Origin: a virus | Taxonomy: Duplodnaviria; Heunggongvirae; Uroviricota; Caudoviricetes | IMG/VR virus record: IMGVR_UViG_3300029517_000155 | Location: 1-5,118 of that record | Direction: 5' to 3' (one strand) | DNA: 5,118 bases | Shown: positions 1-5,118 of the stretch, in pieces | How the letters are laid out: every line of letters begins with the position of its first letter | Numbering within the stretch: position 1 is the stretch's first letter | Position numbers and translations under genes: made by a program | The notes under the pieces: generated by a model | Database searches by the model: none | What the model was told of the DNA's origin: nothing | What the model saw: only the letters and a program-made list of their open reading frames with translations

Positions 1-55
1 ACTTAAAGGTATTAAAAACAACTTTTTGTCTTTTTACCTTCCCGTTTCGCTCAAG
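1..55. other. host chromosomal flank, B' arm of an attB(lambda)-type site
   Basis: Reverse complement reads CTTGAGCGAAACGGGAAGG directly 3' of the lambda core, matching the B' arm of E. coli attB as I recall it (..CTGCTTTTTTATACTAACTTGAGCGAAACG..). Recalled, not searched. Confidence 0.6.
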
Positions 56-70
56 TTAGTATAAAAAAGC
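56..70 (-). other. lambda-type attachment site core (O) at an attR (P-O-B') junction
   Basis: Exact 15-mer TTAGTATAAAAAAGC on the + strand, the reverse complement of the lambda common core GCTTTTTTATACTAA. It has lambda P-arm-like sequence on one side and attB B'-like sequence on the other. Confidence 0.85.
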
Positions 71-212
71 TGAACGCGAAACATTAAAAACCATTAATAT
101 CAATGTGTTACAATATCTTTAGTCTAAAAAATAGACTACATAATGCTACAAAACACAACATATCCAGTCACTATGAATCAACTACTTAGATAGTATTAGT
201 GACCTGAGACAG
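71..212 (-). other. lambda attP P-arm-like region with Int arm-type binding sites
   Basis: Reverse complement closely resembles the lambda P arm (..caggtcactaatac.atctaagtagttgattcatagtgactggatatgttgtgtttt..cgtttc.cgttca-core). CAGTCACTAT at 165-174 is a perfect match to the arm-type consensus (P2-like), and the reverse complement of 195-206 is a P1-like site (caggtcactaat). Confidence 0.8.
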
Positions 213-257
213 AGCATTAGCGCAAGGTGATTTTTGTCTTCTTGCGCTACTTTTTTG
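213..257 (+). terminator. tI / sib-like intrinsic terminator hairpin downstream of att
   Basis: GCGCAAG (220-226) pairs with CTTGCGC (241-247) and the stem extends to about 10 bp via flanking TTA/TA(A/C); it is followed by TTTTTT (251-256). It lies about 160-190 bp from the att core on the P-arm side, where lambda tI/sib sits, and resembles the lambda tI sequence as I recall it. Confidence 0.6.
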
Positions 258-419
258 TTATCAAACATGTCGCACTCCAGAGAAGCACAAAGCCTTGCAA
301 TCCAGTGCAAAGATTTGTGTGCCTCAGTTTTGTCTAAGTGTTCTACTGAAAACATAGTAAAATCGGCAACAGCTGGAAATCATTCAATACTCGCACTATC
401 GAAAGTTCACCAGCCAACC

Positions 420-460
420 GCAGCACGTTCTTGCATACGACGTGCTGCGGTTTTCTTTAT
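420..460 (+). terminator. candidate rho-independent terminator
   Basis: Perfect 9-bp stem GCAGCACGT (420-428) / ACGTGCTGC (440-448) with an 11-nt loop, followed by GGTTTTCTTTAT. The T-tract is on the + strand only. Confidence 0.35.
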
Positions 461-609
461 GATTTATGCACAATGGACAATTTGAAATTATTGATGATTG
501 TATGGTGCATCGTTTTCTGAACCTACACTGATTTTTTGGTATAGCCTTGCCTAGCCAGTCTTACCGGATCAAACTCTTCGCTATTGCAATACTAACCAAA
601 ATCATCAAT

Positions 610-638
610 TTGACAGCGATTAACCAGAATAATAGTAT
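610..638 (+). promoter_or_regulatory. candidate sigma70 promoter for the diguanylate cyclase gene
   Basis: TTGACA (610-615), a 17-bp spacer, then TAGTAT (633-638). A (TA)n tract at 683-694 lies in the predicted leader, and the AGGTG Shine-Dalgarno at 701-705 is 5 nt before the ATG at 711. By eye only. Confidence 0.25.
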
Positions 639-710
639 ACTATCACCAGTAAGAAATTATCGTTATTTGTAGCGATACATATTATATATATATCATTCTC
701 AGGTGCGTAC

Positions 711-2042
711 ATGATTATCAACCAGGTACCTATAAAAATAAAAATCTTCATCTTTTTATTTTCATGCATCTCTATTATATTTTTGTTACTGCATGCAAAT
801 AATGGAATATACATAACACAAACAACACAAATAAGTTATAGTGTTTTCATTATTGGGCTTTTTTTCATAAACCTGATGATTTTTATTTTTCTATTGCTTT
901 ACTATGTTTCTAATCAGAGACAAAGTTATCTCTTAATTCTTTCATTCGCGTTTTTGAGCAACACGTATTATTTATTAGAAGTGGCTATTATTTCTTTATC
1001 TCCGTTAGGTAACGATTTATCTACAATCTATCAGAAATCAAATGATATCGCAATATATTATCTATTCCGTCAGTTCAGCTTTATATCTATAATCTTTCTG
1101 GCTGTTTATTCCACCAATGTTAAAAACAAAAGTGTTTTAGAAGATAAAAGAAACATAATAATTGTTGTTTTGTCAATATTAATTCTTTTTATTACTCCGT
1201 TTGTAGCAAAAAATCTAAGCAGTGACAATATAAAATATAGTCTTAATATTATACAATACTCGCTGAATCGTCATTTGCCGACGTGGAATATCGTGTACAC
1301 CAAAATAATATCAGTATTTTGGCTTGTATTACTTATCAGCTCATGCATCAGCATACGTAATTACTCAAAAATATGGTTGTGTATAATACTTATTAGTATA
1401 GTGTCAGTATGCAATAATCTAATTTTATTGTATTTTATTGATAAATCCCATCCTGCATGGTACATGACAAAATTTCTTGAATTGATATCAATGATTTATA
1501 TCATTTCAACACTCATGTATTATGTTTTCAGGAAATTAAATCATGCTAATCATATGGCAATTCATGATCCACTAACGAATACATACAATAGAAGATACTT
1601 TATTGACTCATTGAAGAATATATCAAAACACCATGATTTCTCAGTAATAATGTTAGATATTGACAATTTCAAAAGCATCAATGACAAATGGGGGCATCAT
1701 ATGGGTGATCAAGTCATAGTAATGGTTACCAGAATAATAAAAAAATCCATCAGGAAAGAGGATATATTAGGGCGCTTAGGCGGTGAGGAGTTCGGTATTA
1801 TCATTAAAGGTAATACTCAAAAGCTCTTGCTATCAATTGCAGAGCGAATCAGAAAAAACATTGAAGAGCAATGCTCGGAAAAATTATTATCGCATGGACC
1901 TGAGAAAATAACTGTCAGTATTGGTTGCTTTACTTCAAAAGAGAATAATCTCAGTCCATCTGAAATGTTAGTCAATGCCGATAAAGCGTTATATCAAGCC
2001 AAAAGAACCGGAAAAAACAAGGTGATAACTCACTCAAAATAA
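711..2042 (+). CDS. membrane-anchored diguanylate cyclase: about 8 predicted TM helices (MASE-like integral-membrane N-terminal domain) plus a C-terminal GGDEF domain; possibly DgcX-like
   Basis: 443-aa ORF with a good RBS. The first ~270 aa form about 8 hydrophobic stretches. The GGDEF domain starts at DPLTNTYNRRYF and carries an intact active-site GGEEF (nt 1779-1793) and an RxxD I-site (RKED, nt 1752-1763) five residues upstream. GC content is roughly 25-30 percent against about 50 percent in the flanking phage genes. Confidence 0.93.
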   Translation: MIINQVPIKIKIFIFLFSCISIIFLLLHANNGIYITQTTQISYSVFIIGLFFINLMIFIFLLLYYVSNQRQSYLLILSFAFLSNTYYLLEVAIISLSPLGNDLSTIYQKSNDIAIYYLFRQFSFISIIFLAVYSTNVKNKSVLEDKRNIIIVVLSILILFITPFVAKNLSSDNIKYSLNIIQYSLNRHLPTWNIVYTKIISVFWLVLLISSCISIRNYSKIWLCIILISIVSVCNNLILLYFIDKSHPAWYMTKFLELISMIYIISTLMYYVFRKLNHANHMAIHDPLTNTYNRRYFIDSLKNISKHHDFSVIMLDIDNFKSINDKWGHHMGDQVIVMVTRIIKKSIRKEDILGRLGGEEFGIIIKGNTQKLLLSIAERIRKNIEEQCSEKLLSHGPEKITVSIGCFTSKENNLSPSEMLVNADKALYQAKRTGKNKVITHSK

Positions 2043-2071
2043 ACACCTTTTTAAAATACAGCCCCAATAAA

Positions 2072-2104
2072 CTGCAGAATATTATCCCATATAATATCCT
2101 GCAG
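2072..2104. terminator. hairpin between convergent genes, possible bidirectional terminator
   Basis: CTGCAGAATATTAT (2072-2085) pairs with ATAATATCCTGCAG (2091-2104) at 13 of 14 positions around a 5-nt loop. It sits between the cyclase stop (2040-2042) and the minus-strand tfa remnant stop (2116-2118). The U-tract is weak on both strands. Confidence 0.35.
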
Positions 2105-2115
2105 TTCGTAATGCA

Positions 2116-2208
2116 CTATTCGATAATGGGTCCTGTTGGCCATTCAATATCCGGTGCAGTTGTTGTATTAACACGGTTCAGCAACACCCGATACTTCTTC
2201 CAGGCTTC
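2116..2208 (-). pseudogene. tail fibre assembly protein (lambda Tfa-like) C-terminal remnant
   Basis: Minus-strand translation [30 protein letters not shown]-stop is nearly identical to the lambda Tfa C-terminus as I recall it (..[32 protein letters not shown]). No N-terminal part is present, and it is in frame with the upstream pin remnant. Confidence 0.6.
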
Positions 2209-2442
2209 CACCACCAGCACGACAAGATGCCGCATACAGTGACCCAGTCAGTCCAGTTTCCAGACAACCAGTGCGTCACCTTTTTGAAGGCGCTTTAAAG
2301 CACGTTTTAATCCAGGTCGGCCTGTCCTTATTCCGCTTAATTTATCTTCAAATATTTGTTCACATCCTGCACAAACAAGAGCGTTTCGTTGCAGGTCTGT
2401 ATTCTGGTCATTTGTTGATACCCTTACATAGCCAATCAGCAC
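2209..2442 (-). pseudogene. serine DNA invertase (Pin/Gin/Cin/Hin family), N-terminal fragment with an in-frame stop
   Basis: From the GTG at 2442-2440 (GGGAG Shine-Dalgarno 7 nt upstream) it encodes (M)LIGYVRVSTNDQNTDLQRNALVCAGCEQIFEDKLSG.R..RPGLKRALKRLQKGD.LVVWKLD, matching the Pin N-terminus including the catalytic-serine motif YVRVSTNDQ. A TGA at 2248-2250 sits where Pin has Arg (KLD-R-LGRSM). Weak similarity continues ([12 protein letters not shown] vs LGRSMKHLISLV) and then switches to Tfa-like sequence, so the resolvase C-terminus and HTH are missing. Confidence 0.85.
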
Positions 2443-2496
2443 GCTGAATCTCCCGTCCAAAAGCACAAATCATGCCATGCAGGCCAGAAACCGCCA

Positions 2497-2522
2497 TTAT
2501 CTAAAACCTCGGTTTACAGGAA
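2497..2522. other. gix/pix-type 26-bp crossover site for a Gin/Pin invertase
   Basis: TTATCTAAAACCTCGGTTTACAGGAA has a reverse complement (TTCCTGTAAACC GA GGTTTTAGATAA) one mismatch from the Mu gix site as I recall it (TTCCTGTAAACCGAGGTTTTGGATAA). It is about 55 bp upstream of the pin start and exactly at the start of the tail-fibre variable-domain reading frame. Confidence 0.8.
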
Positions 2523-2723
2523 ACGGTAAATCAGGCTTCTGGCGCATTACAGAAAAACCAGAACGGCGCAGATATTCCGGGAAAAGATACCTTCACCAAA
2601 AACATTGGTGCCTGCCGCGCATATAGCGCATGGCTGAATATTGGTGGCGATAGTCAGGTCTGGACAACTGCGCAATTTATTTCGTGGCTGGAGAGTCAGG
2701 GGGCATTTAACCATCCTTACTGG

Positions 2724-3467
2724 ATGTGCAAAGGCTCATGGGCTTATGCAAATAATAAGGTTATTACAGATACAGGTTGCGGAAATATTTGTCTTGCAGG
2801 TGCTGTGGTGGAAGTTATTGGCACTCGCGGCGCAATGACCATACGCGTTACTACGCCGAGCACGTCCAGCGGTGGCGGAATTACTAACGCTCAATTCACT
2901 TATATTAATCATGGTGATGCTTACGCTCCTGGCTGGCGACGAGACTACAACACGAAAAACCAGCAGCCTGCATTTGCTTTAGGGCAAACAGGACGCAGGG
3001 TCACAAATGATAAAGCTGTTGGCTGGAACTGGAATAGCGGTGTTTATGATGCAGATATCAGTGGTGCATCGACATTAATCCTCCACTTCAATATGAATGC
3101 GGGGAGTTGCCCTGCTGTACAGTTCCGCGTGAATTACAGGAACGGCGGTATTTTTTATCGTTCAGCGCGTGATGGTTATGGCTTTGAAGCTAACTGGTCA
3201 GAGTTTTACACCACAACACGCAAACCCTCTGCGGGGGATGTTGGTGCATATACGCAGGCAGAATGTAACTCAAGGTTTATTACAGGTATTCGCCTTGGCG
3301 GTCTGTCATCTGTTCAGACATGGAAAGGCCCCGGCTGGTCTGACAGGTCAGGTTATGTCGTTACGGGTTCAGTTAACGGAAACCGTGATGAATTAATTGA
3401 TACAACTCAGGCAAGGCCAATTCAGTATTGCATTAATGGGACGTGGTATAACGCGGGGAGTATTTAA
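2724..3467 (+). CDS. phage side tail fibre protein, C-terminal variable (receptor-binding) segment; orphaned partial gene
   Basis: The open frame begins straight after the stop at 2502-2504, inside the pix site, and reads ..NQASGALQKNQNGADIPGKDTFTKNIGACRAYSAWLNIGGDSQVWTTAQF.. before the first ATG at 2724. This is typical of the variable C-terminal cassette of e14/Mu/P1-type invertible tail-fibre genes. There is no constant N-terminal part and no convincing RBS at 2724; the stop is directly followed by tfa. Confidence 0.75.
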   Translation: MCKGSWAYANNKVITDTGCGNICLAGAVVEVIGTRGAMTIRVTTPSTSSGGGITNAQFTYINHGDAYAPGWRRDYNTKNQQPAFALGQTGRRVTNDKAVGWNWNSGVYDADISGASTLILHFNMNAGSCPAVQFRVNYRNGGIFYRSARDGYGFEANWSEFYTTTRKPSAGDVGAYTQAECNSRFITGIRLGGLSSVQTWKGPGWSDRSGYVVTGSVNGNRDELIDTTQARPIQYCINGTWYNAGSI

Positions 3468-3469
3468 CG

Positions 3470-5118
<1,649 letters not shown>

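Follow-up and report, generated by a model that had tools for sequence, protein, structure and literature searches.

An attR-type junction of a lambdoid prophage at attB(lambda), with dgcX inside the prophage boundary

Features of the window and the prophage boundary

The window, i.e. the whole analysed stretch of 5,118 nucleotides, carries at its left end a short host flank, an exact lambda core and a lambda-like P arm, followed by a gene for a predicted diguanylate cyclase and by remnants of other prophage genes. Its main features are reported below by coordinates and strand.

1-55, unstranded: host sequence from the ybhB side of the ybhB-ybhC intergenic region, with the B' arm of attB(lambda)
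52-60, plus strand: B' core-type Int site, CAAGTTAGT
56-70, minus strand: common core O, GCTTTTTTATACTAA, exact, equivalent to lambda 27738-27724, annotated there as misc_recomb
59-65: 7-bp overlap (strand-exchange) region, within core O
64-72, minus strand: C core-type Int site, CAGCTTTTT, 0/9 mismatches to lambda
71-215: P arm
216-256, plus strand (int-sense): sib/tI, a hairpin with a U-run behind it; 40/41 positions shared with lambda 27578-27538
257-323, unstranded: terminal part of the collinear lambda homology, on the b-region side of sib, 95% identical up to 323
349-460, plus strand: conserved lambdoid b-region piece, 89% identical to lambda 24265-24162
711-2042, plus strand: dgcX, predicted MASE4-GGDEF diguanylate cyclase (Pfam MASE4 7e-36, GGDEF 1e-44)
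2116-2466 (approximate), minus strand: remnant of a pin/gin-type serine invertase
2724-3988, plus strand: half of an invertible tail-fibre segment, frozen in one orientation
3986-5118, minus strand: the first ~390 aa of gpA, joined in frame to an internal J piece, assigned by Pfam and by alignment to lambda

The 15-bp lambda core GCTTTTTTATACTAA occurs exactly once in the window, at 56-70 on the minus strand, while about 0.03 chance matches would be expected even with up to 2 mismatches. On its left side, alignment of 1-70 to the ybhB/bio side of the ybhB-ybhC intergenic attB of K-12 MG1655 revealed 100% identity, and among 5,426 complete E. coli genomes those with an empty site, K-12 derivatives included, matched 1-70 at 100%, the alignment ending there. 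Divergence from the K-12 B arm begins at base 71, where the lambda P arm is found instead; in the test for an empty attB the host B arm (the ybhC-proximal, …GCCTGC side) was absent directly after the core, and the sequence is lambda-like after base 70. The B' core-type site, whose definition is taken from the established lambda literature, was read directly from the sequence: CAAGTTAGT differs from the lambda C' site CAACTTAGT by a single base, the one which distinguishes B' from C'.

On the phage side, positions 52-323 align to the reverse strand of lambda (27742-27471) over 272 bp, without gaps and at 88.6% identity, the lambda position being 27794 minus the window position throughout this alignment. 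The initial annotation, made from the sequence alone, had described an exact core 15-mer lying between B'-like host sequence and a lambda-like P arm, and had taken 1-260 for an attR prophage boundary. The alignments agree with both statements, as the coordinates of flank, core, P arm and sib/tI fill this interval. The two comparisons on which that description hinged also favoured it: flank 1-55 is identical to K-12 throughout, and the P-arm similarity holds in a real alignment.

Sites of the P arm and the sib/tI hairpin

Identity to lambda is unevenly distributed along the aligned region and ends abruptly at position 323, as indicated by the values for single segments.

71-135: 72%
136-215: 91%
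216-323: 95-96%
beyond 323: 22%, unrelated

The core-type, arm-type and Xis 13-mer definitions used to place protein sites were those of the established lambda literature and of PMC7145599 and PMC4880445. The following sites were located in the P arm.

98-110, plus strand: IHF site H2, TATCAATGTGTTA, an exact match to WATCAANNNNTTR; 2/13 mismatches to lambda, both in the NNNN positions
122-136, unstranded: Fis site F, GTCTAAAAAATAGAC; 3/15 mismatches to lambda, with the outer G/C pair and the central A-tract kept
133-162, minus strand: Xis filament region X2, X1.5, X1, kept in HK106, 720R6 and E24377A
133-145, minus strand: Xis site X2, 1/13 mismatches to lambda
150-162, minus strand: Xis site X1, 0/13 mismatches to lambda
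165-174, plus strand: arm-type Int site P2, CAGTCACTAT, 0/10 mismatches, inside the lambda 'int 2' feature
176-188, plus strand: IHF site H1, AATCAACTACTTA, exact IHF consensus, 0/13 mismatches to lambda
195-205, minus strand: arm-type Int site P1, AGGTCACTAAT, 0/11 mismatches, inside the lambda 'int 1' feature

Sites C, H2, F, X2, X1, P2, H1 and P1 are all placed at lambda spacing, and the differences from lambda fall mostly in the spacers. The IHF consensus WATCAANNNNTTR is matched exactly twice within the arm (98-110 and 176-188), against 0.48 occurrences expected in the whole window, and CAGTCACTAT at P2 is the sole exact match to the arm-type consensus in the window. The presence of arm-type Int sites in the P arm, also proposed in the initial annotation, is thus borne out by P2 and P1, both free of mismatches and located within the corresponding lambda features. 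Measured between their midpoints, F and the overlap are 67 bp apart, and the F-X block extends from +59 to +99 relative to the core centre, in agreement with the values reported for lambda, i.e. a Fis site '~65 bp' from the core and 'attR 53-100' (PMC7145599). At the level of sequence, the accessory IHF, Xis and Fis sites of an attR are all represented. In the allele carried by the window, the Fis site forms a perfect inverted repeat, GTCTA-AAAAA-TAGAC.

The P arm is most similar to the attP of HK106, a free temperate phage (93% identity over 52-460), and is an HK106-type allele and not lambda's own. A five-way alignment of the window, lambda, HK106, the attR of the 720R6 prophage and E24377A revealed that the invariant columns correspond to the protein sites, while the variable ones are found in the C-H2 and H2-F spacers. 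Purifying selection acting on a functional att arm would leave a contrast of this kind. The natural allele offers in this sense a small illustration of constraint, with conserved sites and with spacers (71-135) which have drifted to 72% identity.

The sib/tI element is the retroregulator and terminator of int transcripts, and in the lambda prophage sib is separated from int. The element detected here corresponds to lambda sib/tI, as it is a long, GC-rich hairpin with a U-run behind it, located on the P side about 150-195 bp from the core and on the int-sense strand. It was assessed by folding, as its loop is above the 8-nt limit of a simple terminator scan, and a free energy of -22.4 kcal/mol (z = -4.75) was obtained, compared to -24.3 for the lambda equivalent. 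The sole difference from lambda, A250C, opens a basal pair at a cost of about 2 kcal/mol; it is shared only with metagenome contig L008 and is absent in lambda, HK106, 720R6, E24377A, SL124 and contig L009. Since sib is parted from int in a prophage, no effect of the change is evident here.

The b-region piece at 349-460 (~110 bp) is common to lambda, HK106, HK75, phi80 and Stx phages. Positions 418-455 on the plus strand form a 14-bp hairpin followed by a T-run (-24 kcal/mol, z = -5.25). A Rfam scan gave no match at gathering score, partial matches to CssrB and IS009 being below threshold. The one to CssrB, a Shigella sRNA, lies opposite the strand of the 418-455 hairpin and scores 44 bits, against a gathering value of 76.

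By definition, attR is P-O-B'. The window reads B'-O-P on the plus strand and hence P-O-B' on the minus strand, which identifies the junction as attR. With a probability of about 96%, region 1-260 is the attR (P-O-B'), on the reverse strand, of a lambdoid prophage of lambda specificity which occupies the canonical attB(lambda), flanked by ybhB (bio) and ybhC (gal), and was generated by Int/IHF recombination of a HK106-type attP with attB. No observation speaks against this assignment. As such it is a textbook lambda-type structure, already known, and adds nothing new on the biology of site-specific recombination. Its value is one of annotation, as the junction sets the prophage boundary at base 70, with bio on the left and prophage on the right. 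From this boundary it follows that everything from base 71 on, dgcX included, is phage-derived cargo and not core chromosome.

Defective prophage, orientation and the attL side

Four blocks to the right of the core, reported below with the corresponding lambda coordinates, map to lambda in reverse.

349-450: lambda 24265-24162, b region
2138-2213: lambda 22535-22460, 3' end of tfa
3981-4192: lambda 17847-17636, internal piece of J, 95% identical
4191-5117: lambda 1877-951, gene A, 97.6% identical

All four blocks are reversed, as expected for a prophage read from attR toward attL. In three relatives which share this attR, E24377A, SL124 and C1, the ybhB stop codon lies 36 bp before the equivalent of window base 1, with bioA and bioBFCD beyond it; as ybhB and bio are directly to the left in these genomes, the left end of the window is the bio side and the prophage runs rightward. 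The minus-strand, lambda-like gpA agrees with this orientation. A location at the bio-proximal prophage/host junction, which had also been proposed from the sequence alone, therefore fits the setting of all three relatives.

The prophage is defective, with two deletions, gpA::J and J::tfa, and a pseudogene of pin. A single ORF contains the Pfam matches GpA_ATPase, GpA_nuclease (limited to the first 73 of its 294 positions) and Ig_J_second. At 4191/4192, on the minus strand, lambda position 1877 is joined to 17636, with a loss of about 15.8 kb which includes head and tail genes; the same junction is present in SW070917, where J runs further. At 3981-3985 the J fragment, at lambda 17847, meets tail-to-tail the tfa 3' end (3470-3988) of the invertible segment, and the junction provides tfa with a novel C-terminus (172 aa). 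The pin/gin-type remnant retains ~78 codons of the N-terminal part, interrupted by a stop at codon 65, and continues in frame into the final ~30 codons of a lambda-type tfa (…DIEWP…); its identity as pin rests on a Pfam Resolvase match and on the RefSeq annotation of relatives.

Megablast with the full window and with 3700-4500 recovered the J::tfa junction from none of the 5,426 complete E. coli genomes, and an exact 39-mer across the 3985 junction had no match in GTDB species representatives. It is present at 99.8-100% identity in several human-gut metagenome contigs, those carrying the 172-aa tfa being at most 4.6 kb long, which does not suffice to extend to attL. Metagenome contig L008 (3802-4595) contains the J::tfa junction, with J continuing upstream to lambda 17054, and does not contain the gpA::J deletion; SW070917 carries the gpA::J deletion and does not carry the J::tfa junction. 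The occurrence of the two junctions both apart and together points to either recombination between remnants or chimeric assembly.

The whole window was found in no single complete E. coli genome (megablast, 5,426 genomes), and the state of its gal-side end is for this reason deduced only from relatives. The lambda attL consists of GCTTTTTTATACTAA between B (…GAAGCCT) and P' (GTTGGCATTATAAAAAAGC…CAGGTCACTATCAGTCAAAATA). In SL124 an attL adjoins ybhC, 6.5 kb to the right, and int is truncated by IS1. In E24377A a B-O-P' attL adjoins ybhC at 28.7 kb to the right, with Int and Xis identical to the lambda proteins at 353/356 and 71/72 positions, respectively. In C1, where ybhC is about 18.6 kb away, full-length int and xis are annotated beside it, and an attL core was not located. 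The distance between attR and attL varies among relatives, as decay of the remnant has taken a different course in each strain. The statement that int/xis and attL must lie far to the right, on the gal side, holds for the place, since in the three relatives int, and in SL124 and E24377A also attL, adjoins ybhC; 'far' amounts to between ~6 and ~29 kb.

The attB-resident remnant of C1 contains, at 25496-29739, a second integrase together with primase, Icd-like and BRO genes, located between J and a portal fragment; this composition suggests a P4-like satellite nested in a decayed prophage.

Junctions of the attR type, with at least 80% of 1-260 matched, were detected in 1,921 of the 5,426 complete E. 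coli genomes (~35%). The number of complete genomes containing attL together with at least 80% of int-xis is about the same (1,973).

Excision, dgcX and comparison with known systems

A course of events can be proposed from the roles of the attR sites in excision (PMC7145599, PMC4880445). The junction would have been formed by Int/IHF recombination within the 15-bp core, which is thereby bordered by host B' and by the phage P arm. During excision, IHF at H2 would bend the arm, and Fis together with three Xis protomers on F and X2-X1.5-X1 would bend it again; the N-terminal domain of an Int molecule would be placed on P2 and the catalytic domain of the same Int on B', and strand exchange with attL would take place in the 7-bp overlap at 59-65. 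In the sequence, all attR sites are intact, while protein binding and recombination are expected by analogy with lambda (PMC4880445, PMC7145599). The junction looks competent as an excision substrate, no disabling change being apparent, and the diverged stretch 71-135 (72%) and the three changes in the Fis site may affect how efficiently lambda Int, Xis and Fis would act on it. Excision itself depends on attL, Int and Xis, which are outside the window. Since the head and tail genes are deleted, the prophage can at most excise, and no particles can be produced.

Whether such an excision could occur at all is questioned by a reading which is given somewhat less than even odds: attL or a working int/xis may have been lost, leaving the intact attR inert unless Int and Xis are supplied by a superinfecting phage of lambda specificity. 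The heavy deletion of the prophage in the window and the great differences between the remnants found at the attB site of different strains are in keeping with such a loss, as is the 99.9% identity of window 1-3985 to SL124, where the remnant is 6.5 kb long and int is the IS1-truncated one. The right part of the window (gpA, and so probably nu1 and beyond) is however similar to E24377A and SW070917 and not to SL124, full-length int and xis are kept in E24377A and C1, and complete genomes with attL and at least 80% of int-xis (1,973) are about as numerous as those with the attR-type junction (1,921).

A P-O-B' structure is also found in lambda-bio specialised transducing phages and in laboratory lambda or DE3 lysogens, and a non-chromosomal origin of the window from such sources could be imagined because the visible host flank is merely 55 bp long and because the best full-length match to 1-300 in the phage database is the attR of DN1, a bio-transducing DE3 derivative. 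This origin is extremely improbable: DN1 and lambda are 88-90% identical to the window, whereas wild E. coli chromosomes reach 99-100%; all genes from gpA codon ~389 to J codon ~711 are missing and pin is a pseudogene, which is not compatible with a viable phage; and the window carries dgcX, absent from all 50,697 phage records. The reading as a chance core match or an empty attB, to which a short and AT-rich core might lend itself, was rejected in view of the expected number of chance matches (~0.03) and of the sequence to the right of the core, which for 253 bp follows the lambda P arm and b region and not the K-12 B arm.

The interpretation of 1-260 as the attR of a chromosomal lambdoid prophage bears directly on dgcX, a diguanylate cyclase gene known to be highly expressed in O104:H4. 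The gene has a GC content of 26-29%, and its locus is 99.3% identical at the DNA level to the E24377A locus. The combination of a MASE4 membrane domain and a GGDEF domain, encoded beside lambdoid prophage DNA at attB, identifies the predicted product as DgcX. It lies inside the att-bounded element, between the lambda-like b-region piece (349-460) and the tfa 3' end (2138-2213), and occupies the slot and orientation of lambda ea47. Neither its DNA nor its protein sequence had a match in the 50,697 phage records. The E24377A gene was named dgcX by Richter et al. 2014 (PMC4287979), who reported its position at attB beside prophage DNA and suggested that it hitch-hikes by specialised transduction. 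In the window dgcX is within the P-O-B' boundary and in the ea47 slot, and for this reason looks like a b-region moron rather than host DNA captured by specialised transduction. Its location inside the att-bounded element makes the published view of how dgcX travels slightly more precise.

The position of the gene is observed, while any mobility is speculation, and it is rather unlikely that the intact attR marks a still mobilisable, att-bounded cargo element containing dgcX. If attL were kept, and if Int and Xis were provided in cis or by a superinfecting phage of lambda specificity, the remnant could excise and be either lost or rescued into the helper. A mobilisable element of this kind, if real, would account for the uneven presence of dgcX among strains.

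Compared to the lambda attR described by Landy and co-workers (PMC4880445, PMC7145599), the window has the same core and B' arm and the same order and spacing of C, H2, F, X2-X1.5-X1, P2, H1 and P1, followed by sib/tI. The differences are the 72% identity of 71-135 and a limited number of changes, namely three in F, one in X2, two in H2 (N positions) and one at the base of the tI stem. Relative to the lambda b region, dgcX is found in place of ea47, and ea31 and ea59 are missing in the window. In the attR of DN1 and of the DE3 lysogen of BL21, annotated as 'attR site', the B' flank, the core and the P-O-B' architecture are the same, but the sequence is true lambda, 90% identical to the window, and continues into ea59 and the lambda b region.

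The attP of HK106 (Wanchaivirus; JQ086369, annotated as 'similar to lambda attP') shares with the window the spacer variants which set it apart from lambda, as well as the downstream hairpin piece of 349-460. HK106 differs in being a complete phage in the free state: P' and int lie across the core, tfa follows the conserved piece immediately, and dgcX is lacking. In the remnant of ETEC E24377A (PMC4287979), stf-tfa is located where the window has the pin remnant and half of the invertible tail-fibre segment, and the end-point of the gpA deletion is elsewhere; the two are otherwise alike, with 99.3% identity over window 1-2213 and the same attR, dgcX, tfa 3' remnant and gpA allele.
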